DNA from: a virus
IMG/VR virus record: IMGVR_UViG_3300008261_001864
Location: 1 to 64,000 of that record
Direction: 5' to 3' (one strand)
Length of the DNA stretch: 64,000 nucleotides
Made by a program: the position numbers and the translations under genes. Each line of letters starts with the position of its first letter. Positions within the stretch are counted from its first letter, which is position 1. Shown piece by piece: positions 1 through 22,447 of this stretch. The notes beneath the pieces were generated by a model. It saw nothing but the letters and a program-made list of their open reading frames with translations, was not told the origin of the DNA and ran no database searches.

Positions 1-1193
1 GCCGTGACGCGGATCGCCTTGATGGTCTGGTCCGAGGGGGCGTCGAACGAGTAGGGTCGCAGGATCGTCTCCACGATGCCCCGCAAGGCACGCGCCCCCG
101 TGGGCCGCTTCCGTGCCTCTGCCGCGATAGCCCGCAGGGCTTCCTCGTCGAACTGGAGGTCAATGCCGTCCATGCTAAAGAGCGCCTGGAACTGCTTGAC
201 GATGGCGTTCTTCGGCTCCGTCAGGATGCGGACCATTTCCTGCTCGGTGAGTTCCAGCGTGGTGGTCAGGACCGGCAGACGCCCCATGAGTTCGGGGATG
301 AGGCCGAACTCCAGAACGTCGTCCTCCGTCGCCTGTAGATAGACGTCGGTACGAGACAGCTTCTTGGCCTCACGCGCTCCGAAGCCGATGCCCGCCCCAC
401 GGTTGACCCGCTTCTCGATGACCTCCTCAAGGCCCGCAAACGATCCCGCACACACGAACAGAACGTTCGTGGTGTCGAAGGCATCCCCGTACATAGACAT
501 CCCGCCCCGTGAACCCATGCCACGCGGGACAACCATCTTGGAGCCTTCCAGAAGTTTGAGGAGCGCCTGCTGGACCCCCTCGCCGCTGACGTCGCGGTAC
601 CCCGTGGCCCCACGCCCAGACTTGCGGGCCAGCTTGTCGAACTCGTCGATGAAGATGATGCCCCATTGGGCACGCTCCACTTCACCGTCGGCGTCCTGCA
701 CCAACCCTTGCAGGAGGCTCTCAACGTCGTCGCCAACGTATCCGGCCTGCGTGAGACGGGTGGCATCCCCGACGAAGAACGGGACCTTGAGCATACGGGC
801 GATGCTGCGAGCCAACTCCGTCTTGCCGGTTCCGCTCGGACCCATCAACAGGATGTTGGACTTCTGAACCTCCACCCCGAGGTCGAGTCCGTTCTTGACT
901 GCTTCCCGCCGCTTGTAGTGGTTATAGACCGCGATGGCCAGGTCTGTCTTGGCCTTGTCCTGCGCGATAACGTGCCCGTCGAGGATCGCCTTGATCTCTC
1001 GTGGCTTGCGGAGAGGTTCTTCCTTGGCGGCCGTCTGTACGTCGGCCTTCTGGGACTGCGTGTACGCCTTGTGCCCGTCCTCCAGACAGCGGTTGCAGAT
1101 GTAGGGGCCACCGTCGTTGCCGATCAGAGCCTTGACCTCGTTACGGGGCCGGTTGCAGAAGCCACACTTGGCGGTTGTCTTGGTGGTCGTCAT
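1..1193 (-). CDS. clpX: ClpX AAA+ unfoldase (3' end runs off the window; not in the ORF track)
   Basis: Manual translation from ATG at 1193: Zn domain CGFC...ICNRC, AVYNHYKR, Walker A NILLMGPSGTGKT, pore loop QAGYVGDDVE, Walker B IIFIDEFDK, RDVSGEGVQQALLKLLEG, IGF loop AGIGFG. Confidence 0.97.
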   Translation of the reverse strand, partial: MTTTKTTAKCGFCNRPRNEVKALIGNDGGPYICNRCLEDGHKAYTQSQKADVQTAAKEEPLRKPREIKAILDGHVIAQDKAKTDLAIAVYNHYKRREAVKNGLDLGVEVQKSNILLMGPSGTGKTELARSIARMLKVPFFVGDATRLTQAGYVGDDVESLLQGLVQDADGEVERAQWGIIFIDEFDKLARKSGRGATGYRDVSGEGVQQALLKLLEGSKMVVPRGMGSRGGMSMYGDAFDTTNVLFVCAGSFAGLEEVIEKRVNRGAGIGFGAREAKKLSRTDVYLQATEDDVLEFGLIPELMGRLPVLTTTLELTEQEMVRILTEPKNAIVKQFQALFSMDGIDLQFDEEALRAIAAEARKRPTGARALRGIVETILRPYSFDAPSDQTIKAIRVT

Positions 1194-1196
1194 GAT

Positions 1197-1236
1197 CCCC
1201 TCTTACACCGACGAGCGATAAGGCCCGTATGGTTTT
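1197..1236 (-). promoter_or_regulatory. Class A repeated motif (AAAA-N23-GGTGTAAGAGGGG) upstream of clpX
   Basis: GGTGTAAGAGGGG ends 3 nt before the ATG. The same motif precedes starts at 5481, 8430 and 18920. Confidence 0.6.
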
Positions 1237-1267: not shown

Positions 1268-1302
1268 ACCCACTAGGCAGAGCGTTCGCGGACAATCAAC
1301 CG
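1268..1302 (-). promoter_or_regulatory. Class B promoter-like motif CGGTTGATT-N16-CCTAGTGGGT
   Basis: Same two boxes with identical spacing occur at 18971-19005 (+). TTGATT resembles a sigma70 -35 box. Confidence 0.6.
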
Positions 1303-3379: not shown

Positions 3380-3950
3380 GGTCGATCCTTTCGGTTTGGA
3401 GGCGCACCGCTTCTACCACGTCGTCCCATGAGGTCGCACGAGTTAGTCCACGGTCTAGCCTGTTGTAGGGCGCTTCCCATAACAGCCCTATGCCGTCTGG
3501 GTTCTCCTTCGTCCAAGCCATGACGTTCTCGGGCTTGTCGTCCACGAACACGTCGCCCCTGCACAGGTGCTTGGCCTCCGTATAGACAAGGTGCGTATCG
3601 GGGATGCCAACCTGTCGAGACAGCCAGCCTGCTCGGTCGGTGTACCAAAAGGGTGAGTTCCTCATCGGAGCCGTCACCGCGTACACCTCGGCCACCCCTT
3701 GGAGGCGAGACACTCCCTCCGAGACACCCTCGTAGCGGGCGAGCCTGGCCGCTACACCAGGTCTCGCACACTCGTAGAAGAACTCGTGCTTCCACGCTGG
3801 ATCGAAGGTCTGGAACAGGTCCCAATCCGTGAACTGCTCACGGGTGTAGGTCCTGCCGCTCAACTCCTCCATCGTCTGGATGGCGAAGCCAAGGAAGTCG
3901 GCCAGCACCCCATCAACGTCCAGCAACACCCTCGGCCTTCTCTGCGCCAC
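3351..3950 (-). CDS. HAD-family 5'(3')-deoxyribonucleotidase (NT5C-like)
   Basis: LLDVDGVLADF, VTAP, KHL..GDVFVDDKPEN, APYN, SWDDV motifs. Confidence 0.9.
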   Translation of the reverse strand: MAQRRPRVLLDVDGVLADFLGFAIQTMEELSGRTYTREQFTDWDLFQTFDPAWKHEFFYECARPGVAARLARYEGVSEGVSRLQGVAEVYAVTAPMRNSPFWYTDRAGWLSRQVGIPDTHLVYTEAKHLCRGDVFVDDKPENVMAWTKENPDGIGLLWEAPYNRLDRGLTRATSWDDVVEAVRLQTERIDRGVLCEDSR

Positions 3951-4665
3951 GGTAAATCTCCAACTTCTTGAGCCAGTAGATGATCGACATGGGCTGAGTT
4001 CCGAATCGGGCGGCGATCTTATGGGGCGACAGCCCCTCCCCGTACAGGCGAATCACCTCATCGACGTCAACTCGGCCGTGTGTGGGCGCTCCCATGACCT
4101 CGCTGACGAGGTTCCCACAGACCTGTTCTCGGAGGTCGGGGTCCGCATAGACGTAGTTGCGGAGTGTATACATCGAGACGCCACAGACCTCGGCCAACTC
4201 CCGCCATGTCCTCCCCACCGCGAGCCGGATGATCTCATCGTCGGGGGGCTTCTTGTGGGACTTGTCCTTCAAGACCACCCCGTGCTTGTCCGCGATCAGT
4301 TTGACCTCGGCGGGAGTGGTGCCAATCTCGGTGGCGATCTCCTTGGCGGTACGCTCGGGTGACAAAGCCGCCTGTATGCGGGCGTGCCGCTCCTCTCGCT
4401 TCGCATCCGAGAGCCGTGGCAGGTCGGCTCCAGCCTTCTTGCGCCATTGGGAAACCGCCTGCCGCGACACTCCAAGGCGGGCCTGGACCTCATCGGTGGT
4501 CAGTTCGTACAACTTCTCGGTCAGCCAGTAGTGTCGCAACTCGTCGGGATCAGGGTAACGGGCATCCGGCCCCAACCCCCGCACAGCCTCGGCCTTGTTG
4601 GGGAACATCCCGTACCGCACAGGCGCACTCCCCTGCTGAGAGCAGAACAGCTTGAGGCCACTCAT
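3913..4665 (-). CDS. Multi-helix-turn-helix DNA-binding protein
   Basis: About four HTH-like segments: TDEVQARLGVSRQAVSQW, TAKEIATEIGTTPAEV, TWRELAEVCGVSMYTL, SPHKIAARFGTQPMSI. Confidence 0.8.
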   Translation of the reverse strand: MSGLKLFCSQQGSAPVRYGMFPNKAEAVRGLGPDARYPDPDELRHYWLTEKLYELTTDEVQARLGVSRQAVSQWRKKAGADLPRLSDAKREERHARIQAALSPERTAKEIATEIGTTPAEVKLIADKHGVVLKDKSHKKPPDDEIIRLAVGRTWRELAEVCGVSMYTLRNYVYADPDLREQVCGNLVSEVMGAPTHGRVDVDEVIRLYGEGLSPHKIAARFGTQPMSIIYWLKKLEIYRGAEKAEGVAGR

Positions 4666-5090
4666 AGCGTCTCCTTGATCTGGAGGGACAGCCGCTCCAT
4701 CTCCGCGATCAGTTCCCGCTGCCGCTCCATGAGAGCCAACACCTTCTCCTCCTTGGTCGGCTCGGGCGGCTTAGGCGGGGGCGGCGGCTCCACCTTGACC
4801 CACAGGGGAAGCTGCGGCGCTCCAAGGAACAGACCGAGTTCCTCCAGGTAGAACTCGATGATCTCCACGGTCTGGCGTCCGAGATTCTGGATTTTCAGCA
4901 ACTCGAACCTTGACATCTTAGCAAGGTCGGCAAGTGTCTTGATGGCCCGACGGTCAAACACCCCCTGTGCGCGGTTGCCGAACGGCACCACATGAACGGG
5001 CGTCTCCAGCAACTTCTCTCGCGGCAACGCCTTCAAGTGAGCAAATAGAGGCTTGTCCTTGGTGTAAATCTTCATCGCTCTAGCGGCCAT
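4662..5090 (-). CDS. Stand-alone RNA polymerase alpha-subunit C-terminal-domain-like protein
   Basis: NRAQGVFDRRAIKTLADLAKMSRFELLKIQNLGRQTVEIIEFYLEELGLFLG follows the alpha-CTD pattern. Start moved to ATG 5090, which has a GGAGG RBS. Pro-rich linker and C-terminal coiled coil. Confidence 0.82.
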   Translation of the reverse strand: MAARAMKIYTKDKPLFAHLKALPREKLLETPVHVVPFGNRAQGVFDRRAIKTLADLAKMSRFELLKIQNLGRQTVEIIEFYLEELGLFLGAPQLPLWVKVEPPPPPKPPEPTKEEKVLALMERQRELIAEMERLSLQIKETL

Positions 5091-5133
5091 GTGTACCTCC
5101 TGCGCCGCTATCAGAGCGGCAGCATGGGGTAAC

Positions 5134-5162
5134 AGGTAACACAGCGTAAGAGCAACTGTCAA
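5134..5162 (-). promoter_or_regulatory. Sigma70-like promoter upstream of the alpha-CTD gene
   Basis: Perfect TTGACA (5157-5162), 17-18 nt before an imperfect -10 (TTACCT/TACCTG), in an AT-richer gap. Confidence 0.5.
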
Positions 5163-5172
5163 GCGTTGTCGA

Positions 5173-5481
5173 TCAATCTTTTGACAAATCCACACTGGCC
5201 CGCTGGATGGCGGCTTCCAGCGAGGCGGGCAGGGCGTCATCGTCGAGGAAGTCATCGACGTCGAAGGCAGACCGCATGAGGCGTGAGAAGGCGTCATCGG
5301 AGTCCCGCCAGCCGTCGATGAAGTGCCGCAGGGCAGCGGTCACTTGATCCTGCTCCTCTTGCGTGCGGGCACGACGGTACATGGCCTCGAAGCGGGCCAC
5401 CTCGTCGGGTTTCATGTTGGTGGTGAGTCCTCGGAACCGAAGGACGTCGATGAGCAGGTTCTTCCGCTTCCGCTTGTTCAT
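5173..5481 (-). CDS. Hypothetical protein
   Basis: 102 aa ORF directly after a class A motif; basic N-terminus, acidic C-terminal part. Confidence 0.75.
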   Translation of the reverse strand: MNKRKRKNLLIDVLRFRGLTTNMKPDEVARFEAMYRRARTQEEQDQVTAALRHFIDGWRDSDDAFSRLMRSAFDVDDFLDDDALPASLEAAIQRASVDLSKD

Positions 5482-5484
5482 ACC

Positions 5485-5522
5485 CCCCTCTTACACCGGG
5501 GCAGGTAGCGACTCGGGCGTTT
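5485..5522 (-). promoter_or_regulatory. Class A repeated motif (AAA-N22-GGTGTAAGAGGGG)
   Basis: Exact 13-mer before ATG 5481; overlaps the TAA stop of the upstream gene. Confidence 0.6.
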
Positions 5523-8433: not shown

Positions 8434-8474
8434 CCCCTCTTACACCGACTCGAAAAGAAACGGCCCACCTTTTT
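8434..8474 (-). promoter_or_regulatory. Class A repeated motif (AAAAA-N23-GGTGTAAGAGGGG)
   Basis: Exact 13-mer ending 3 nt before ATG 8430; its A-tract lies in the loop of the upstream terminator. Confidence 0.6.
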
Positions 8475-9059: not shown

Positions 9060-9680
9060 TCATACACCAGAACCCTTGAACTTCACTCGCCCGCCAACCG
9101 GGACGACGTTTGTGGCTGGCTCTGGTGCCGCCCACGCATCTCGTGGCGGTGTCTGATCCCCTCTTACACCGGCCAACATCCGGCCCCCTTGAAAAGGTGA
9201 GTTGATAGGGAAAGATTCTGGTCGCACGGCTGGCTCCCTCGCCACAACAGGCTCGACGGGCTGCGTCGGAGGAACCTCGACGGGCGCAGGGGTGACAACA
9301 GGCTCCGCTGCGATAGGCCTGGTCACAACGGGCGGTCGCCGTACCTCTGCGACAGGCTCGGCCCGCACGGGTGCCTCGATGACCGGCGTGGCATCGGGGT
9401 CAACCCACGATCTGATGTCGGGCGGCCTGCTGGCATCGAGGGACAGGAACTTCTTGCCCGCGATGATCTTGAAAAGGGGGTCGGCAGGGTCCATGCGAGG
9501 AGTGTTCTTGAAAAGCCGGTCCTCCCATGTGTTGACCCGCATATCAAACCGACTCTGGCCGAACAGGCTACGAGTACAGTCGGGGTTGATGCACCGCTTG
9601 CACCACCCCTCTTGAAAGGTCGCCAACGGCTCCCCAGCGGTGTTGCACTCGGACAGTTGATCTCGTCGCGGGACCGTCAT
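9060..9680 (-). CDS. Hypothetical protein with Cys cluster and Pro/Val/Ala-rich linker
   Basis: ATG 9680 overlaps the polymerase stop (ATGA); EC...WCKRCINPDC. Confidence 0.75.
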   Translation of the reverse strand: MTVPRRDQLSECNTAGEPLATFQEGWCKRCINPDCTRSLFGQSRFDMRVNTWEDRLFKNTPRMDPADPLFKIIAGKKFLSLDASRPPDIRSWVDPDATPVIEAPVRAEPVAEVRRPPVVTRPIAAEPVVTPAPVEVPPTQPVEPVVAREPAVRPESFPINSPFQGGRMLAGVRGDQTPPRDAWAAPEPATNVVPVGGRVKFKGSGV

Positions 9681-12532
9681 GCACCCCTCTCCTCCCCTAC
9701 CTTGCCGTCCGATAGGTTCTTCTCCAGTAGTTGCTCTGCGAACCGTCCCGCGTTGACCCGTATCTTGAGGTTGGGGTCGATCAGTACGTTGCCAAACCCG
9801 TCGATGAGCCGCAGGTAGTGGCCCGTGTCCACCGTCATCCAACGCCCGATGGCCTCCCTGACCTGTGCGACCGAGAGCGCCGTCGTGGTCTTGAGCCGTA
9901 CCGTGGCGGTCCTCACCTTCTCGGTACCCTGCTGGGCAGGTGCGGAGGGCGGCGGGGGTGCCGTGGGGGCCACCGCCACAGGTGCCGCCGCAGGTGCGGG
10001 TGTTGTCTGGGGGGCGACCTCAACGGCTGGCTCGACCTGCTTGGCTTCGACGGCTACTGCGGTGCCCTGCGGGACATAGGGCAAGAGGGCGGCCGGTACC
10101 TTCTTGTAAACGTACCCGTGAGAGATGAAACCACCCTCGGGAGGCTGCTCGCCTTCCTTGGCCCTGTGGCACCCGAACTCGGCACCCCAAGACTCTCCCA
10201 GCAGCGGGTCCGTCACCAACGGGACCAGCCACTTGGGCGAGTAGGGCGGCCTCGCCATGATGGTGGGCTTTTCCATCTCGCGGGTCAACACGGGGATGAC
10301 CTCGAACACGAGATCATGCCGCACCTCAAAGACCAACTCATCGTGGACGGTCAGGAGCATCCTGACCGCATCCGCTGCGTCCTTGAGCCAGCCTTGGCGG
10401 TACAGTTCCTTGTGGATCAGCACCATGCTGATCTTCATGATGTCGGCACCGCTACCCTGGATCGGGTAGTTCGTCGCATGACGCTCGCCAGACGCCCGTA
10501 GGCTCCGAACGTCCTCCTCGGTCTGGACAATCTTGCCCCATGAGTCCTTCTGGCCCTTCTGGAGGTTGGCGTCGGGAATCGCAATCCATCGCCCGAACGC
10601 CGTCCACACTCCAAGGTCACGCTTGACCTTCTCGTGCTGACCCTTGACCCAGTTGGCGAACGTGGACACGGCCTTGTCGAACGCCTGCTTGCGCCGCTGG
10701 GCCTCCAGCCGGTTGCAGCCGGTCGCCCGCATGATGGAGGCGGGGCCGCCGCCGTACACAAGGGCGAAGTTCGCCACCTTGCCCATCTTGCGTTCGTCCT
10801 TGGTGACCTCCTTCTTGTTGAAGAACGCCCTCGCCGTGATGCTGTGGAGGTCGCCGTCGCCGTTCTGGAACTCCTTGATCCAGACAGGCTCGTTGGAGAG
10901 GTTCGTGACGATACGGAGTTCCTCGGCGGCGTAGTCGCACTTGACCATCGTGTATCCCGGCCGGGCCACGAAACTCGTGCGGACGTCCGAGGTGCCAGGG
11001 ATGCCGTGGATCGGGATGCCGCTGAACCCGTCCTCCGCGTTGCCTGCGGGGGCCGAGAAACGTCCCGTCGCTGCACCCGTCTGTTTGAACGAGAACCGCA
11101 GTTCATCGTTACGGTCAGGGTTCGCGGACAGGCTCTCCAGATAGGTACCCAGCATCTTATCTTCTTCGCGGTACCCGTCCACCCACTCCAGCACCTCGGG
11201 GGCGTTGACGCCCAACTCCTCCCTGATGGCCTTGAGGCTCTCGTAGTCCGTCTTGTACTGCTGGGACTTCTCGTTCAAGGGAGGCTTGGGGTTGATGTTC
11301 AACCCCCGCTCGCCAAAGAGGAACTCGCCAAGTTGCTTGGTGGAGCCAGGCTCGAACGCCTCAAAGCCCTTGGAGGTCGCCAATGCAACGATCTTGTCGC
11401 GGTACTCCTGCCACTTGGCCCTGTGGGCGTTCCGCAGCCCCTCCAGACGGCTCCGATCCACCCTGACCTTGTTACGCTCCATGACGCGGACGACCTGCGT
11501 GACCTGCTTCTCCAGCCGGTAGATGAACTTTCGACCCGTCGGGTCCCTGTCGATGACAGGCAGGAGGTCGGGTCTGGCACACAGGAGCCGCGTACAGATG
11601 GCGTCGGAGCCAGCGTACTTGACGACACCTGGCTCGTCAGGGGAGAGGCTCGGGAAACTGATCTTCCGCGATGTCGGGAACAGTTCCTTGAGCTTTATCA
11701 TCTCGTAGGGCGACCCGTCGGGGGCGCGTAGCAACTGTGCGGCCTTGTCCTTGAGGGACAGGTTGTGGTCGCCCGAGTACAACGTGAAGTAGGCGAGCAT
11801 CCCGTCCTCGAAGGAGTCGGGGTGCCAGAAGTCAATGCCCGTCACAGGGTACAGGAACTCTTGGTCGAACTTGGCGTGCCAGAAGTCGATCACCACCCTC
11901 GGGGGCGTCTCGAAGTCCTTGAAGGCCAGCGGGTCTGTCTGGCCGGGCTTGGGGGTCGGCTGCGCTGCCCGACAGAGCCGTGTGATGGCGGCCTCGACAC
12001 GCTCGACGGGTTTCACATTGAGGTCAGGGCCACCGTCCAGCGCCTTGTGTCGGACGGGGATGTAGTAACCCGTCTTGGCCTCACCGACCGCGATACAGAA
12101 GCCGACGATCTGATGGTGGGTGCGGGGCCGTCCCTGTGCGTCCCACTCGATGCGGTTGTCCAGCCCTTCCGTCTCAAGGTCCAGCGAACACTTGCCGTTC
12201 GCCAACGCCTCATCGACGATACGCTCAACCTCGTCCGAGGTACGCACCAGCACGAACTCGTGGTACTTCATCCACGGCTTCGTGATGTCGGGCACCTCCC
12301 GCTCGGCCTTGATGCCGGTGGCACTCAGGAACGATTCGAGATCGTCGCCCTCGTCCTCATCCACCTTGAAAAGGCTGGTCTGTTTCGTTGTCTCGGAGGC
12401 GACAGCTTCCCGCAACTCGGACACGAGGTCCAAGTCATCGGGTTCCTCGGCGGGTGGGGTGGGTACCTTCGCGGGTGCGGCTTCCTCGTCCAACAGGGCT
12501 GCGATGTCATCCAAATCGTCGATTTCAGTCAT
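9677..12532 (-). CDS. polA: Family A DNA polymerase with 3'-5' exonuclease domain and acidic N-terminal extension
   Basis: ExoI LDLETEGL, ExoII HAKFD, ExoIII YAGSD, ATGRFS, motif A DYAAEELR, motif B RKMGKVANFALVYG, NYPIQGSGAD, motif C TVHDEL. Start ATG 12532 with GGAGGAG RBS. Confidence 0.96.
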   Translation of the reverse strand: MTEIDDLDDIAALLDEEAAPAKVPTPPAEEPDDLDLVSELREAVASETTKQTSLFKVDEDEGDDLESFLSATGIKAEREVPDITKPWMKYHEFVLVRTSDEVERIVDEALANGKCSLDLETEGLDNRIEWDAQGRPRTHHQIVGFCIAVGEAKTGYYIPVRHKALDGGPDLNVKPVERVEAAITRLCRAAQPTPKPGQTDPLAFKDFETPPRVVIDFWHAKFDQEFLYPVTGIDFWHPDSFEDGMLAYFTLYSGDHNLSLKDKAAQLLRAPDGSPYEMIKLKELFPTSRKISFPSLSPDEPGVVKYAGSDAICTRLLCARPDLLPVIDRDPTGRKFIYRLEKQVTQVVRVMERNKVRVDRSRLEGLRNAHRAKWQEYRDKIVALATSKGFEAFEPGSTKQLGEFLFGERGLNINPKPPLNEKSQQYKTDYESLKAIREELGVNAPEVLEWVDGYREEDKMLGTYLESLSANPDRNDELRFSFKQTGAATGRFSAPAGNAEDGFSGIPIHGIPGTSDVRTSFVARPGYTMVKCDYAAEELRIVTNLSNEPVWIKEFQNGDGDLHSITARAFFNKKEVTKDERKMGKVANFALVYGGGPASIMRATGCNRLEAQRRKQAFDKAVSTFANWVKGQHEKVKRDLGVWTAFGRWIAIPDANLQKGQKDSWGKIVQTEEDVRSLRASGERHATNYPIQGSGADIMKISMVLIHKELYRQGWLKDAADAVRMLLTVHDELVFEVRHDLVFEVIPVLTREMEKPTIMARPPYSPKWLVPLVTDPLLGESWGAEFGCHRAKEGEQPPEGGFISHGYVYKKVPAALLPYVPQGTAVAVEAKQVEPAVEVAPQTTPAPAAAPVAVAPTAPPPPSAPAQQGTEKVRTATVRLKTTTALSVAQVREAIGRWMTVDTGHYLRLIDGFGNVLIDPNLKIRVNAGRFAEQLLEKNLSDGKVGEERGA

Positions 12533-12534
12533 GG

Positions 12535-12951
12535 TTACGGCTCCTCCACGATCACCACATACACCGACTCCCGCCACAGCCGGATGAGTTCCTGCCCGAT
12601 TTCTGGAGGCACCCCGACGGGTTCAAAACAGGTAGGCATCTTGGGGGCTTTCGGGATGCAGTCGGCCTTACGGTAGAAAATGCACTTGCCCGACAACGCG
12701 CATTGGCGCGAGTCGGGCGACAGTCGGTGCAGGATGAGTTGTGGGGATGGCCCCAGAGCCTTTACGAGCGGACTCGTCCAGCCATGCAGCGCGTGATCGA
12801 CCATCTCCTTGGTGGTGACCAGCAGGTACTCGGCGTAGCGGCTGGTCCTCAGAGGCTCCCAAGCGGCTTCCCAGACGCCAGCCTTGCTGCGAACCAGCAT
12901 GAGGTGGAGGTCGCCCATCTCACGGGTCTGGAGTTTGATCTGTCGAGCCAT
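12535..12951 (-). CDS. Hypothetical Cys-containing protein
   Basis: 138 aa; four spaced Cys; translationally coupled to its neighbours. Confidence 0.75.
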   Translation of the reverse strand: MARQIKLQTREMGDLHLMLVRSKAGVWEAAWEPLRTSRYAEYLLVTTKEMVDHALHGWTSPLVKALGPSPQLILHRLSPDSRQCALSGKCIFYRKADCIPKAPKMPTCFEPVGVPPEIGQELIRLWRESVYVVIVEEP

Positions 12952-13880
12952 CAGTCTTGCTCGTCGTCGTCGCCGTAGCCCTCCTCAACGACGGGAGCGG
13001 GTCCAACTCGACCCTGCTGACGGTCAGCCAGCACCATCCCGAAGTTGTTGACCCCCTGCGGGATCACGAGGCCCGCCTTGCGGCGCAGCACGTTGGTACG
13101 AAAGGGGCGGTAGTCCACATGGTGGTGCCACCGTCGGAACTTCCAGACCACCTCCGCAACGTCGGGGTGCATGGCGGCGAGCATCCTGCTCTTGTTGAGC
13201 GTACCCTCGATCTCGTAGAACTCTCGGGTGTTGCCGCCCGTCATCCGCTGGGTCGCCACCTTCCCACACAGGAAGGCGTTGAACTGCACGGTCACCCACT
13301 TGTCCTTCAAAACCCGCAGGGACAGGTCGGTGTCCTCGTTGTAGCGCCCCCGCCAACGGTACTGGATGTCGTTGCGGATCAGTAGGCACGAGTAGATACG
13401 GGTGTTCAGCACATAGGGGGGCAGAGCATCGACGGCCTTGGCGAACCCTTGGTAGTTGAAGCCCGCGACCGCGACATTCTCGTACCGTTCCACAAAGTCC
13501 TCGGCGGCTCGAAAGACGCTGCCCGTCTCACAGACGATGCGGGTGTTGCGGTTCATCCTGTAGAAATGCTCGAAGTTGTCGTCCATCACCCAATGCCACG
13601 CGGCCCCCTCCGAGATCGCATGATCCCAAGCGAAGTTGCGTGCGGGGCCTGGCCCCTTGCTCTTGGTGGTCCCAAGATCATCGAAGGCGTCGTACTCCTC
13701 GATGTACCGTGGGGGTAGGATGAGTAGCTTGTCGGCTCCGACCTCGGCGGCGTACAGGTCGAACTCGGGTTCCTCGACGATGATGCGGTACGGGGTCCGC
13801 ATCCGATCCAGCGCCTTGCTGGTCAGCCGCGACTCCCATCGGCCCTTCGACACCACATAGATGGGGTGGCTAGGATTCAT
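12951..13880 (-). CDS. GT-A-fold DNA-base glycosyltransferase (TET/JBP-associated, GREB1/JGT-like)
   Basis: IYVVSKGR, GPARNFAWDHA, WVMDDN, RIYSCLL, WRGRYNEDTDLSLRVL, GGN motifs. Start moved to ATG 13880. Confidence 0.82.
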   Translation of the reverse strand: MNPSHPIYVVSKGRWESRLTSKALDRMRTPYRIIVEEPEFDLYAAEVGADKLLILPPRYIEEYDAFDDLGTTKSKGPGPARNFAWDHAISEGAAWHWVMDDNFEHFYRMNRNTRIVCETGSVFRAAEDFVERYENVAVAGFNYQGFAKAVDALPPYVLNTRIYSCLLIRNDIQYRWRGRYNEDTDLSLRVLKDKWVTVQFNAFLCGKVATQRMTGGNTREFYEIEGTLNKSRMLAAMHPDVAEVVWKFRRWHHHVDYRPFRTNVLRRKAGLVIPQGVNNFGMVLADRQQGRVGPAPVVEEGYGDDDEQD

Positions 13881-14181
13881 CGACGTACCGCTTGTCGGTG
13901 CCAGGCCCACCCCAATGAGACTTGTAGGGATGCCAGATGCTCTTGGTCTTGGCGTTCAACTTCTGGCCGATGCGGGCCGCGAAGTCGTCGAGGTCCTCCT
14001 GCGAGTTGAAGCGGACCACGATGGTCGCATAGGCCACCTGCTTGTCCTGCACGAACTCGGGCATATTCTGCCACTCACGCCGCCACACAGGCTCGCCCTC
14101 GGGGTCACCAAGGCCCGTGGCCTCCAAAAACGAGTCAATGTCGTCGCCGTCGTCATCTTCCCAACGCCTGTCCTGACTCAT
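13870..14181 (-). CDS. Small acidic partner of the glycosyltransferase
   Basis: EWQNMPEFVQ...IVVRF..QEDLDDFA..IGQ....KTKSIWHP pattern, which I recall from phage genes upstream of this glycosyltransferase family; overlaps the GT start. Confidence 0.7.
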   Translation of the reverse strand: MSQDRRWEDDDGDDIDSFLEATGLGDPEGEPVWRREWQNMPEFVQDKQVAYATIVVRFNSQEDLDDFAARIGQKLNAKTKSIWHPYKSHWGGPGTDKRYVDES

Positions 14182-17168: not shown

Positions 17169-18920
17169 TCATTCATCGGAGGAATCCTTGCCCTGTAGGC
17201 GTCGGATGAGGTCCTTGGTACCTGACCCCTCACGCTCGAAGTCGAGAGCGCCCACCGCCGCCTCGCCCAGCACTCGGTCGATGAGGTTCTTCTTGGACTG
17301 CAAGAGAGCCAGAACGTGATGGTCAATCGTCTTGCGGTCCTTCTTCTTCTCGCGGGGCCGCTCTGCGATGAGGTGGTAGCAGACGATGTGCTGATGGGGG
17401 CTGCCAATACGGATAGGCCGCCCGAGAAGCTGGACGTAGTTACCCCATGACCACGGGGCATCGTAGAAGATCATCGCGGACGCAGCCTGTAGGTTGATGG
17501 CCTCGCTGCCAGCGTCCGTGATGAAGATGACCTTGACATCCGACTCAAGGTTCTGAAAGACCTCCTGATGGCGGCGACGAGTCTTGTCGTCCTCCCGCCC
17601 CGTGATCCGCACGCTCTTGATGCTGGCCTCTGCGAGGATGTGCTGGAGGCGCGTCACAACCTTCTCAAACCGCGTATAGACGATCACCTTGTCGTTCTCT
17701 AGTTCGTCCGTGATGAGGTCGAGGAGCGCCTGCTCCTTGGCCCCCAACTTGTCGATCTTGAGTAACTCGTCCCTGTAGATGCCCGTCTCGATCTCGGACT
17801 CGGCCTCGAACTTGAGGATCGACAGGGAATCCACAACCTGCTGGCAGTAGATGAGGGACACGAACGCCTTGTGTTCCTCGTAGTCCTTCACGGTCCCGTC
17901 GCCCATCTCAAAGACGCCCGACAGCGCCTCACCGTACTTGGAGTCCTCGGCGGGGCTGAGTTCGCAGGTGATCTCCTTGGTGATGAGGGTCGGCAGTTCG
18001 TCCGAGACGACGTGCTTGGGACGCCCGAGGAAGAACGGGTCGATCTTGTCACGGAAGTGCTGGAGGTTCCGATACCCGACGACGAGCGGTACCTGTCGGC
18101 CCCCTGCCACACGGGTCAGCCGCGTCACGCAGTAGTCGTTCATGAACGCCGTCTTGGTGGTGAACAGGTCGGGTACGAGCGCCTTGTAGATGGAGAACCC
18201 CTCCATGAGGTTGTTCTTGAGCAGCGTGGCGGTCAGCCCGTAGGCCCGATGGGCCAGCCCCGAGAGTTGGGCGCAGACCTGCCAGGTCTTGGTCGAGTTG
18301 GTCTTGAAGGCCGTCGCCTCGTCAAAGACCACCACGACGTTCTGGGTGTTCTGCACGATGCCGTGGACCATGCCCGGCTTGACGGGAGACTTCGGGTCCT
18401 TGGGGTCGGCGCGACCAGCCCCCTCCGTCCAATCCTTCACCAGCAGGTGATAGTTGACGAGCAGGACGGCCTTCTCGTCCGTGTTGGTGGGGTGCTTGGC
18501 CCACGCCTCATAGACCTTGCGGCGCTCTTTGGGGGTCGAGGTAGTCACCACGAACGTCTTGACGTTGTGGGCAAACCTGTGAATCTCCCCCTCCCATTGA
18601 CGCAGGGCTGACTTCGGGGTGACGACGATGACCTTGTTGGCCGGTTCCTTGGGCCACAGGTAGCAGAGGGTGCCGATCACCTGAGCCGTTTTCCCCAGGC
18701 CAGTTCCGTCACCCAGCACCATCCGCTTCATCATCAGAAGGTGGTAGATGCCCTGCGACTGATAGTACCGCAGCCGCAACGGTTGGGGCTTGCCGTCCAG
18801 CCCCTTGATCTCCGTGCGGAGCATTGGAGTCGGCTTGAGCGCCACCGTCTTGGAAGCCCGTATCTTCTTGAGGTTGTCGTAAGCGGCTTGGATTTCTGGG
18901 GCGAGCGGTTTGTCTGCCAT
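17169..18920 (-). CDS. SNF2-family SF2 ATPase/helicase
   Basis: LRYYQ, LGDGTGLGKT, VVFDEAT, LTAT..KNN, KVIVYT, SEAINLQ, YDAPW, QLLGRPIRIG. Start ATG 18920; the ORF-track extension to 19442 is spurious. Confidence 0.93.
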   Translation of the reverse strand: MADKPLAPEIQAAYDNLKKIRASKTVALKPTPMLRTEIKGLDGKPQPLRLRYYQSQGIYHLLMMKRMVLGDGTGLGKTAQVIGTLCYLWPKEPANKVIVVTPKSALRQWEGEIHRFAHNVKTFVVTTSTPKERRKVYEAWAKHPTNTDEKAVLLVNYHLLVKDWTEGAGRADPKDPKSPVKPGMVHGIVQNTQNVVVVFDEATAFKTNSTKTWQVCAQLSGLAHRAYGLTATLLKNNLMEGFSIYKALVPDLFTTKTAFMNDYCVTRLTRVAGGRQVPLVVGYRNLQHFRDKIDPFFLGRPKHVVSDELPTLITKEITCELSPAEDSKYGEALSGVFEMGDGTVKDYEEHKAFVSLIYCQQVVDSLSILKFEAESEIETGIYRDELLKIDKLGAKEQALLDLITDELENDKVIVYTRFEKVVTRLQHILAEASIKSVRITGREDDKTRRRHQEVFQNLESDVKVIFITDAGSEAINLQAASAMIFYDAPWSWGNYVQLLGRPIRIGSPHQHIVCYHLIAERPREKKKDRKTIDHHVLALLQSKKNLIDRVLGEAAVGALDFEREGSGTKDLIRRLQGKDSSDE

Positions 18921-18921
18921 G

Positions 18922-18965
18922 CCCCCTCTCTTACACCAACCCGAGAAGCCACCGGGGCTTTTTTT
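18922..18965 (-). promoter_or_regulatory. Class A repeated motif (A7-N21-GGTGTAAGAGAGGGGG)
   Basis: Ends 1 nt before the SNF2 ATG. Confidence 0.6.
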
Positions 18966-18970
18966 GGTGG

Positions 18971-19005
18971 CGGTTGATTTCCGCTGGGGTCGCTTCCTAG
19001 TGGGT
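18971..19005 (+). promoter_or_regulatory. Class B promoter-like motif CGGTTGATT-N16-CCTAGTGGGT
   Basis: Same boxes and spacing as 1268-1302; ends 26 nt before the plus-strand micro-gene. Confidence 0.62.
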
Positions 19006-19031
19006 ACAGAACGCCAACCACGGAGACTCAA

Positions 19032-19193
19032 ATGACCATCGACCCGACCGACTTTGGCAGCATCGAGGACAGCGCGGAGTTCGCAGAGTTCGAGCGTGAC
19101 GAGGAGGCTCTCGCCCAACTGATCGCAGAGGGCTTCATCGGACGCCCCGTGGTCGCCCAGACCCCCGTGGTCGAGGACGACATCAACTTCTAA
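19032..19193 (+). CDS. 53-aa acidic micro-protein with SSB-tail-like C-terminus (EDDINF)
   Basis: MTIDPTDFGSIEDSAEFAEFERDEEALAQLIAEGFIGRPVVAQTPVVEDDINF*. GGAG RBS, high GC3 codons and an upstream class B motif. Below the ORF-track size cutoff. Confidence 0.72.
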   Translation: MTIDPTDFGSIEDSAEFAEFERDEEALAQLIAEGFIGRPVVAQTPVVEDDINF

Positions 19194-19198
19194 AAAAA

Positions 19199-19410
19199 CG
19201 AGGCCCACGGCCTCATACGGACGAGCCGGTGTAGCAGCCGGATAGTCGGGTGGCCCCCGATGAAGCGAAGCGGGGTTGCTCCCCGTAAAAAAGCCGCAAC
19301 GCCTACGCAAAGCAGGCCGGTGCTGGACGGCACCGCATGGATGGAGTGGTGGAGGGCGCAAGCCCGATGAAGCCCCCCGACCAACCGTCCCTACCCATAC
19401 ACCCACAGCC
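19199..19410 (+). ncRNA. Candidate structured non-coding RNA with a kink-turn
   Basis: No credible ORF. Hairpins at 19200-19214, 19271-19285 and 19318-19335. K-turn-pattern hairpin GGUGGA-GGGC-GCAA-GCCC-GAU-GAAGCC at 19348-19374. CCCGATGAAGC occurs twice. Confidence 0.4.
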
Positions 19411-19420
19411 CACCAAAGCA

Positions 19421-19464
19421 TCGGCCCGCCGCTTCCTGCCATGTGGTCAGGGAGGGCGGGCCGA
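19421..19464. terminator. Long GC-rich hairpin between convergent units (probable terminator)
   Basis: TCGGCCCGCC...GGCGGGCCGA outer stem with CTTCCTG/CAGGGAG inner stem; only weak U-tracts on either side. Confidence 0.55.
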
Positions 19465-19481
19465 CGTCTTTCGAGCGAACG

Positions 19482-20408
19482 CTAGGCAACCGCCTCGCTG
19501 TCCACGGTGCGACCGTGACAAACGAAGGGCGTGGCTAGGTCCCACTTACCAGCGGCGATCAGCTTGCTAAGGGCATCCTGCCGGTACACGCACTTCTGGA
19601 CGAGCGGGTTGCTGTTCGCGGCCAACCAAGCCCGACGAACCGCGATGTACTCCTTGACCCACTCCTTTTCGTCACCCCCAGCGGCGGGGGTCGGTTCCTT
19701 GACGGCAGCCTTGTGGGTCGCCACACGGCCAGGGCCCGAATGGATGCAGGTGTCGTAGATGGTCAACAGCCCCAACGCCGACGTGAGGCCAAAGGACTCC
19801 GCGTGCTTGACGGCGGGCGAGAAGTACACCTCGTCGAACACCTCGTCCTGCGCCCGCTGCATGAACGCATCCTTGCCCGCCTTCTTGAGCAGCGCGATCA
19901 GATCGTTCAACCACGCCGGATAGGGACCGCCTGGCGTCACCTTGGTGGACTCATTGGAGGCGATCTGGGGGAGGTACTTCTGGAGGTCGCCCGCCAACGG
20001 GCCGCCCAGAGCGATGTACCGCTTCACCACGAGGTCCAGCGACCCCGCCTTGTCGGTACACTGGTGCTTGCCATACGAGATGCCAGCCCCATCCTTCAAG
20101 ATCGTACACGTTGCGTAACTCTCGGGGGTCGGGACCTTACCCGTCTCGAAGATGGCGAGAACCGCATCAATCGCCTTCTTCTGCGCCGCCGTGTAGGCCA
20201 GCTTGCCCGACTTGGCCGCAGGAGCCGCCTTCGCAGGGGCCGCCCCCTGCTTCAACGACGCCTCATAGGCTAGGCTCTGCTTCTCGGTACCAGCACCGTG
20301 GATGCCGTCGGCCTTACCGACGTTGAATCCATGCTCGTTCAAGAACTCCTGCCACGCCTTGACGGCCTCGCCCTTGTCGCCTTGCTTGGTTCTGATTGGT
20401 GTCGTCAC
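19482..20408 (-). CDS. Modular endolysin: N-terminal peptidoglycan-binding domain plus GH46 chitosanase/lysozyme-like domain
   Basis: GDKGEAVKAWQEFL...ADGIHGAGT (PG-binding); AIFETG, DGAGISYG, QDEVF...YF.PA, YDTCIHSG. Confidence 0.85.
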   Translation of the reverse strand: MTTPIRTKQGDKGEAVKAWQEFLNEHGFNVGKADGIHGAGTEKQSLAYEASLKQGAAPAKAAPAAKSGKLAYTAAQKKAIDAVLAIFETGKVPTPESYATCTILKDGAGISYGKHQCTDKAGSLDLVVKRYIALGGPLAGDLQKYLPQIASNESTKVTPGGPYPAWLNDLIALLKKAGKDAFMQRAQDEVFDEVYFSPAVKHAESFGLTSALGLLTIYDTCIHSGPGRVATHKAAVKEPTPAAGGDEKEWVKEYIAVRRAWLAANSNPLVQKCVYRQDALSKLIAAGKWDLATPFVCHGRTVDSEAVA

Positions 20409-21337: not shown

Positions 21338-22447
21338 TTATTTCATCTGAGCGAGGGTCGCCTCCAAGATGGCGCGAGTCGCACCAGACAAGGAAAAGTT
21401 GTTGAGAATCGTTTGTATGAGTTGTTTCCCCTCCTTCATACGGGTCAGACTCTTTTTCTCACCCCCGTAGGTGTAGTCACCAAAGACCCGACGCACCAAC
21501 CCCGCCTTCACGAACTTGGTGAGGTCACGCTCGTTCAGATACTCTGGCTTCCCGTTGCACACGATGGCGACCGCCTCGTAGTCCCCCGAGTACCCGCCTC
21601 GATCCACCTTGTAGTGGTCGGGCTTGGCGTCGTAGGACTTGCCGTAGGTGATCTCGACGACGTTCTTACGCCCCGCCACGCTCGCCGCATCCCCAGCCAC
21701 CTGCCCCGACTCCACCAACCAATGCTTGATGGAGATGCCCGTCCCTCGGGGCATCTTGTCGTCGTCCAGTTTCCAGCCCTGTGCGTCCACGACCTTCGAG
21801 TTGAACTTGCCGTCGAAGTCCACGAGCTTCATGGCCTTCACGACGTTCCCATAGAGCCACGCGGGCTGGGAACCCTCGTCGGCTTTGATGGGGAACTCGA
21901 AGGAACGGATCGTCCAGATGTCTTGGTCGGCCCCCGCGCCAATGAACATCTGCTCGTAAACGAAGTGCCGCATCGCCACAAAGACGTGCTTTGCGTCGGT
22001 TCGACCGTAGGCGACTCGGCAGGTGTCGGAACGGCTGTACTCATCGGACGAGTACCCCGTGCCCCGCTGGAGGTCCGTCACAAACAGCCACCCGACGCCT
22101 GCCGGAATACCGGCTTTCCCCTTGGCGTCGTTGAAACTGACCTCCTTGGCTCTCGGCTTATCGTACCGTACCTGACCGCCAGAGGGCGGCGGGGGCGACG
22201 AGGGACCCGTCGAGGGGCTGCTCCGATCATAGGTGGGCCGCTGCCGTCCCGTCAGAACGTCACGGGCGACGTTGACCTGTACCATCTGATCTTCGCTACC
22301 ACCCCGATCAGGGTGCGCCTCGAACGCCTTGGCTCGGTACGCCTTGGTGATCTCAGCCTCGCTGGGGTTGTCAGACGGCGAGAAGCCAAGCAGGGACTTG
22401 GCCTCGTCGAGCGTCATGGCGATTCGCAGGAATGAGTAACGGTCCAT
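21338..22447 (-). CDS. J-domain (DnaJ-type, HPD) protein with unknown C-terminal domain
   Basis: AKSLLG...EITKAYRAKAFEAHPDRGGS..QMVQVNVARDVL. Confidence 0.85.
   Translation of the reverse strand: MDRYSFLRIAMTLDEAKSLLGFSPSDNPSEAEITKAYRAKAFEAHPDRGGSEDQMVQVNVARDVLTGRQRPTYDRSSPSTGPSSPPPPSGGQVRYDKPRAKEVSFNDAKGKAGIPAGVGWLFVTDLQRGTGYSSDEYSRSDTCRVAYGRTDAKHVFVAMRHFVYEQMFIGAGADQDIWTIRSFEFPIKADEGSQPAWLYGNVVKAMKLVDFDGKFNSKVVDAQGWKLDDDKMPRGTGISIKHWLVESGQVAGDAASVAGRKNVVEITYGKSYDAKPDHYKVDRGGYSGDYEAVAIVCNGKPEYLNERDLTKFVKAGLVRRVFGDYTYGGEKKSLTRMKEGKQLIQTILNNFSLSGATRAILEATLAQMK

Follow-up and report, generated by a model that had tools for sequence, protein, structure and literature searches.

What does a gene for a protein of only 53 amino acids, running against the direction of almost every neighbour, do in a phage genome when its product is strongly acidic and stops on residues close to the C-terminal tail of bacterial SSB? 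The amphipathic DDDIPF tail of SSB binds a hydrophobic pocket flanked by basic residues in more than a dozen partners (PMC3632105), and a sequence-only reading of the locus had proposed that the micro-protein, expressed early in infection, is a decoy of this tail or a DNA mimic and titrates host proteins of replication, repair or defence. We analyzed the gene in its window, a stretch of 64 kb forming the first part of a 99,443-bp IMG/VR record with an estimated completeness of 21%; the whole phage must therefore measure several hundred kb, and the record is a fragment of it.

The window is a piece of a freshwater megaphage. Lake and freshwater metagenomes from several studies contain near-identical DNA, and its SNF2 helicase has 24 relatives in IMG/VR (53–63% identity), on contigs of up to 529 kb, while the sole relative in GenBank (43%) belongs to an uncultured 485-kb phage. 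Nearly all genes of the record are encoded on the minus strand. The micro-gene ORF occupies a 560-bp gap between the end of the lysis block, a GH46/peptidoglycan-binding endolysin at 19482-20408, and the first gene of the replication block, the SNF2 helicase (17169-18920, minus strand), from which it diverges. The replication block further comprises a DnaB-like helicase, a TET-associated glycosyltransferase, a family A DNA polymerase (PolA), ThyX and ClpX. The glycosyltransferase (PF20691, E 3e-47; 12951-13910, minus strand), lying within the replication module, suggests that the phage has hypermodified DNA bases. Other minus-strand genes of the window encode a stand-alone protein resembling the alpha-CTD of RNA polymerase (4662-5297), a multi-HTH protein with similarity to sigma region 4 (3913-4665) and a J-domain protein (21338-22447). 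The phage ClpX is full, with zinc finger and AAA parts (3-1193, minus strand); sought as a clue to the host, it matched many phyla at 46–52% identity and gave none. The SSB family PF00436 had no match in the 99-kb record, nor in five relatives, of which three are complete, and these phages therefore probably meet the SSB of the host and its clients. A search with PF10991 (DUF2815) gave no match, and gave none in control genomes either.

The ORF at 19032..19193 (plus strand, stop codon included) is almost certainly a gene, as indicated by the frame itself, its codon statistics and its homologues. Its ATG is the only possible start and is preceded, at a distance of 6 nt, by a Shine-Dalgarno sequence, GGAG, read from the sequence at 19022-19025. 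The GC content at codon positions 1, 2 and 3 is 0.68, 0.36 and 0.87, against about 0.60, 0.44 and 0.80 in the long genes. A codon table trained on the long genes of the minus strand gave the ORF 0.66 bits per codon, a value partly due to its richness in Asp and Glu, and placed it first of the 498 ORFs of 40–90 amino acids in the 99-kb record; the next-best small ORF scored 0.34 and the long genes 0.37 ± 0.08. The antisense frame gives noise rich in Ser and Thr, as would be expected across from a genuine coding frame. Reads from four freshwater runs were identical throughout the ORF, with no natural variants. The identical protein is already present on three contigs in public collections (NCBI, JGI/IMG and Logan) and must therefore have been called by gene finders before, so that the description of the gene as 'unannotated' does not strictly hold. 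The basic description of the product was borne out: 53 residues, of which 14 are acidic (6 Asp and 8 Glu) and two basic (both Arg, with no Lys or His), a C-terminus reading VEDDINF and a ribosome-binding site. The net charge is about -12.

Searching 1.8 billion representative proteins with phmmer retrieved two homologues, P0002 (54 aa, E 8e-9) and P0004 (50 aa, E 6.6e-7), to which a profile search added P0006 (54 aa) and a cluster look-up P0007 and P0008. Four of the homologues are distinct; they are 50–54 aa long and 59–68% identical to the query. Those that are full-length have the common start MTIDPT.F, and every one stops at the same place. The columns S10, I11, E12 and D13, E16, F17, A18, E19 and E21, G34, G37, P39 and V40, and D50 and I51 are invariant in the family alignment. 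There was no homologue in the phage GenBank collection, by DNA or by protein, none in IMG/VR with either the micro-protein or the family alignment as query, and none in JGI metagenome contigs or GTDB genomes; in 24 related megaphage records, of which five are complete, the profile met only noise (E about 0.05) in all six frames. As far as these searches reach, the family is narrow. The micro-protein matched nothing in Pfam (E<=0.01) or PHROG, and PADLOC and the ESM Atlas offered no lead. The top match of a profile search of the PDB, an integrin tail, had an E value of 0.5 and was taken as chance.

AF2, supplied with the family alignment, predicted a single helix (residues 14-32, block pLDDT up to 85) with disordered ends and no strands; the monomer model had a mean pLDDT of 68 and a pTM of 0.34. 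With 53 residues, no Pfam match and one helix without strands, the protein indeed has no room for an OB fold, as had been stated at the outset. Its core, encoded at 19059..19127 on the plus strand, consists of S-I-E-D (residues 10-13), E-F-A-E-F/Y-E (residues 16-21) and the predicted amphipathic helix, residues 14-32. It is followed by the segment G-x-I/M-G-R/V-P-V-V/A (residues 34-41; 19131..19154, plus strand), modelled as non-helical, which holds the four invariant residues G34, G37, P39 and V40. Together, the central helix and this G-x-I-G-R-P-V-V segment are the best-conserved part of the micro-protein, the helix region being better conserved than the tail; the protein is therefore more than a bare tail, and the tail may be secondary to the helix region.

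The remainder is a linker and a terminal peptide. The linker (residues 42-47; 19155..19172, plus strand) has a low pLDDT and differs in both length and sequence among the homologues. The tail, E-D-D-I-N-F with a free carboxylate (19173..19190, plus strand), is SSB-Ct-like in its acidic run, its Ile at position -2 and its aromatic last residue; over the last 13 residues of the protein the pLDDT is 52-61. Across the family the endings are EDDINF, QDDINF, EDDIAY and IADIEF. Conservation of a D-D-I-x-F end, a test set beforehand, was thus largely borne out: D(-3) and I(-2) are invariant and the residue before the stop is F in five of six sequences and Y in the sixth, but D(-4) is kept in only three of the four distinct variants, and position -5 is E, Q or I. 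Position -1 is N, N, A or E and Pro in no variant. A drifting linker followed by a fixed D-I-x-aromatic end is, judged from this alignment, the pattern of a constrained terminal short linear motif. Within the 99-kb record D-D-I-x-F-stop occurs once, and the reversed control pattern does not occur.

Other classes of short motif were considered for the tail and rejected. The beta-clamp binding motif (QL-x-LF) would require a Gln or Leu pattern that the tail does not have, the proteasome-activator motif HbYX a penultimate Tyr that is absent, and the C-terminal peptide of FtsZ (D-I-P-x-F-L) is internal rather than terminal. LAA-type degrons of ClpX were likewise discarded as a class.

The micro-gene is preceded, about 27 nt before its ATG, by a bipartite promoter-like element, GGTTGATT-N16-CCTAGTGG (18972..19005, plus strand). 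This is the class B motif that had been assigned to the gene at the outset; we found it as GGTTGATT-N16-CCTA at 18972-19005 and located three further copies in the record. The four copies lie at 18972(+), 80530(+), 92704(+) and 1301(-). Three precede counter-oriented genes on the plus strand, and the fourth (window positions 1268-1301, minus strand) precedes the phage clpX. Apart from the micro-gene, the plus-strand genes behind the element lie beyond the window: a 126-aa gene at 80578-80958, which belongs to no Pfam, PHROG or PADLOC family, and a 114-aa gene at 92775-93119. Besides these three, the record has no credible counter-oriented gene, and the statement that the micro-gene is the only credible plus-strand gene holds for the 64-kb window but not for the record as a whole. 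A 40-nt version of the element with four differences recurs, on contigs from three freshwater runs, in front of other ribosome-binding sites and genes, and recurrence before different genes supports a portable promoter. Its -35-like half resembles TTGACA, and its second half is not TATAAT; we infer that the element would act as a promoter. The one pointer to early expression of the micro-gene is this separate promoter-like motif, which suggests that the gene may be transcribed early.

A GC-rich hairpin with an 8-bp stem (five GC pairs) directly follows the stop codon (19198..19216, minus strand). Its TTTTTTT tail is on the minus strand, and the hairpin therefore serves primarily to terminate the lysis unit upstream on the minus strand; it may act bidirectionally and end the micro-gene transcript as well. 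Between the micro-gene and the endolysin there is a non-coding stretch of 290 nt (window 19194-19481). An Rfam scan of 18800-19600 returned only a sub-threshold match resembling a SAM riboswitch (19332-19447, plus strand; 17.4 bits against a cut-off of 44.4, E 0.65). A second hairpin, GCCACC-loop-GGTGGC with a T7/A7 tract (18948-18971), lies between the promoter-like element of the micro-gene and the leader of the SNF2 helicase gene, which stand back to back. Six minus-strand genes, including those for ClpX, an AAA ATPase and the SNF2 helicase, carry that leader, GGTGTAAGAG-A/G-GG, 3-7 nt ahead of their ATG. Its copies are at window positions 1197-1209, 5485-5497, 8434-8446, 9158-9170 and 18925-18937, all on the minus strand, and at 80482 and 94376 of the record; at 9158-9170 no ATG follows within 7 nt. 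The leader is a shared translation-initiation or transcription-start signal.

On this basis we propose, tentatively and at clearly less than even confidence, that the C-terminus of the micro-protein is a docking peptide of the SSB-tail kind, serving as a decoy or an adaptor on a protein of replication, recombination or repair. We infer the docking, target, timing and effect of the micro-protein along the following lines. Driven by a conserved promoter-like element of its own, the gene would be read counter to its neighbours and give a disordered and very acidic product of two modules, the amphipathic helix with G-x-I-G-R-P-V-V and the variable linker with its acidic-Ile-x-Phe/Tyr end. A hydrophobic, basic-rimmed pocket of the replication, recombination or repair protein would receive the aromatic side chain and the carboxylate of the last residue, with the helix module providing a second contact or self-association. 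Occupation of the pocket would compete with SSB, in the case of a decoy, or bridge the target to another protein, in the case of an adaptor; the likeliest targets would be host SSB clients. With its conserved helix module the protein is more than a free tail, and it therefore fits an adaptor or bivalent binder as well as a decoy. A predicted complex of the micro-protein with the SNF2 helicase, run without controls, scored 0.00 and so carries no weight either way.

The absence of the penultimate Pro is a genuine objection to the SSB-tail reading. In the SSB tail this Pro is thought to enter the pocket along with the Phe, and E. coli SSB with Ser in its place (ssb-113) confers conditional lethality (PMC3632105). 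The variant that ends A-D-I-E-F, with fewer adjacent acids, also counts against the reading. The idea of an SSB-tail mimic thus survives in part: the gene is real and conserved, its SSB-like end is constrained and it has cousins with canonical tails, but the penultimate Pro is missing and the helix is better conserved than the tail.

The cousins came from a scan for D-D-I-x-F-stop on both strands of 25 records of this phage clade, about 6.3 Mb in total. There were three matches, against one for the reversed control pattern, and all three, one of them the query, are the ends of small acidic ORFs that run against their neighbours. The first of the other two, P0009, is a protein of 81 aa ending DEDDDIPF (L006:2824-3066, minus strand); its gene comes second in a counter-oriented unit of two, which lies upstream of the SNF2 helicase, and is translationally coupled to the 130-aa ORF upstream of it (L006:3072-3461, minus strand). 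The second, P0010, has 62 aa and ends PPPDFDDIPF. It is encoded by a single counter-oriented gene (L030:1504-1689, minus strand, equivalent to L031:3001-3186, plus strand) in a 246-bp gap between co-directional genes and not near the SNF2 helicase; a further protein of 62 aa, P0011, is 79% identical to it and keeps the ending. The endings of P0009 and P0010 reproduce the SSB tail together with its Pro-rich lead-in. Neither an OB fold nor a Pfam or PHROG family was found for these canonical-tail micro-proteins, in which AF2 sees a short helix only. As far as their predicted products go, OB-less SSB-tail micro-proteins exist in this megaphage clade. In the literature searched we found no description of a natural protein that is essentially an SSB tail without the DNA-binding domain.

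Common descent of the two micro-protein families is not claimed: hhalign aligned the query family with the canonical-tail family over the tail alone, the last 13 columns, with a probability of 5%, and 13 acidic columns can align by composition. The families would therefore seem analogous rather than demonstrably homologous. A broader proposal is that the OB-less micro-proteins of the clade, that is, the canonical family and the family with the derived DDINF/DDIAY ending, are made from counter-oriented islets that have promoters of their own and work in trans on the SSB interactome of the host. As decoys they might pull enzymes of repair, restart or defence away from host SSB; as adaptors they might deliver such enzymes to a phage replisome without a canonical SSB. 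We consider action in trans rather doubtful.

The position of the gene invites a different explanation, in which tail and helix belong with acidic-hydrophobic motifs by which the replication proteins of the phage dock on one another, and the micro-protein is a replisome regulator, competing with or bridging contacts on, for example, the family A polymerase, the DnaB-like helicase or the SNF2 helicase. The micro-gene heads the replication module, divergent from the SNF2 helicase and with the DnaB-like helicase and PolA downstream, and the canonical-tail micro-gene of L006 is likewise divergent from an SNF2 helicase; the third tail micro-gene (L030/L031), however, is not near the helicase. There is also a candidate vocabulary of such motifs within the phage. 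The N-terminal extension of PolA (12311-12361, minus strand) and a small protein that starts near 14.19 kb, upstream of the glycosyltransferase (motif at 14110-14160, minus strand), have GDD-I/L-D/E-SFL in common, within a longer motif GDD-I/L-D/E-SFL-x-ATG-I/L that occurs in this record only, among 25 records; PolA of the relatives carries an acidic-hydrophobic motif of the DDFM type at the same place. DDINF may be a further member of this set of acidic docking peptides within the phage, but its likeness, as DDINF-COOH, to the internal DDIDSFL covers few residues and is biased by composition. A regulator of this kind would resemble phage T7, where the acidic tails of gp2.5 (SSB) and gp4 (helicase-primase) end in Phe and dock on replication proteins, among them T7 DNA polymerase. 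For gp2.5, contacts with replication proteins are mediated by its acidic tail (PMC10359462). Taken together, we judge a phage-internal role unlikely.

The strong negative charge could alternatively mean that the micro-protein is a DNA mimic or general acidic inhibitor, whose negative helix imitates DNA phosphates and blocks a host DNA-binding enzyme or a defence protein, the C-terminal motif being incidental or stabilising. The model would be the way in which the 52-aa T7 gp5.9 acts on RecBCD and MukBEF; gp5.9 is a small acidic DNA mimic (PMC9836394, PMC7617805). A protein of 53 aa with a net charge of about -12 and one conserved acidic helix would fit, as would the separate promoter-like element expected of a host-takeover gene. 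Against this, PHROGs, the PDB, PADLOC and the ESM Atlas were all empty, giving no relation to any known mimic, the AF2 monomer model, with its single helix, hardly suggests a stable fold or a dimer, and mimicry leaves unexplained why the D-I-x-F/Y end is kept while the linker drifts. We regard DNA mimicry as quite improbable.

The promoter-like element common to clpX and the micro-gene suggests co-regulation and, since ClpX reads short terminal peptides, a micro-protein that is recognised by the phage ClpX as substrate, adaptor or regulator, or that delivers or shields a client; but the tail is unlike LAA-type C-terminal degrons or the SspB docking peptide, and the element also stands before two unrelated small genes and so is not specific to this pair, which makes a ClpX link very unlikely. 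That the ORF is a chance frame in an intergenic gap, as its shortness and the origin of all its homologues from short metagenomic contigs might suggest, is scarcely credible given a codon score that ranks first among 498, four distinct homologues (59–68% identity) that keep start, length, frame and end, a rightly placed Shine-Dalgarno sequence and promoter-like element, and a Ser/Thr-rich antisense frame.

The SSB C-terminal tail is a hub that organises bacterial replication restart, recombination and repair, and it has been proposed as an antibiotic target. If the micro-proteins dock on SSB clients, phages would have a host-takeover or anti-defence factor of a new class, one that naturally inhibits or hijacks the SSB hub at the protein level, and peptide inhibitors of the SSB interactome would be ready to hand. 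In that event the endings I-N-F, I-A-Y and I-E-F would tell which pockets can do without the Pro. Should the target instead lie inside the phage, the micro-proteins would still represent a conserved, separately promoted class of micro-gene in giant phages, with ties to the acidic docking motifs that form a network in its replisome.

By analogy, the tail of the micro-protein would compare with acidic terminal docking tails, a kind already known. With the tail of bacterial SSB it shares its place at the extreme C-terminus, a disordered linker, an acidic run, Ile at -2, an aromatic last residue and a free carboxylate, and the relatives' micro-proteins carry the exact hexapeptide and the Pro-rich lead-in. 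Unlike bacterial SSB (PF00436), the micro-protein has no OB fold and forms no tetramer, its -1 Pro is replaced by N, E or A, and one variant ends in Tyr; its conserved helix module is absent from SSB, and docking is here a prediction. T7 gp5.9, Ocr and Arn are alike in size (52 aa for gp5.9 against 53), in strong negative charge and in a likely host-takeover role from a separate transcription unit, but there is no homology, the AF2 monomer model hardly suggests a stable dimeric fold, and the micro-protein has a constrained terminal peptide rather than a charge pattern alone. The acidic tails of T7 gp2.5 and gp4 are phage-encoded, as here, and this phage too has a family A polymerase; they are, however, borne by large functional proteins, whereas the micro-protein has 53 aa and no other domain, and there is no sequence relation. 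The canonical-tail micro-proteins differ from the query in their I-P-F ending, in bodies that do not align with it and, in one case, in belonging to a two-gene operon, but they come from the same clade, are likewise encoded by counter-oriented genes, and share the small size, the acidity, the largely disordered chain with a single short helix, a linker rich in Pro and the D-D-I-x-F terminus.
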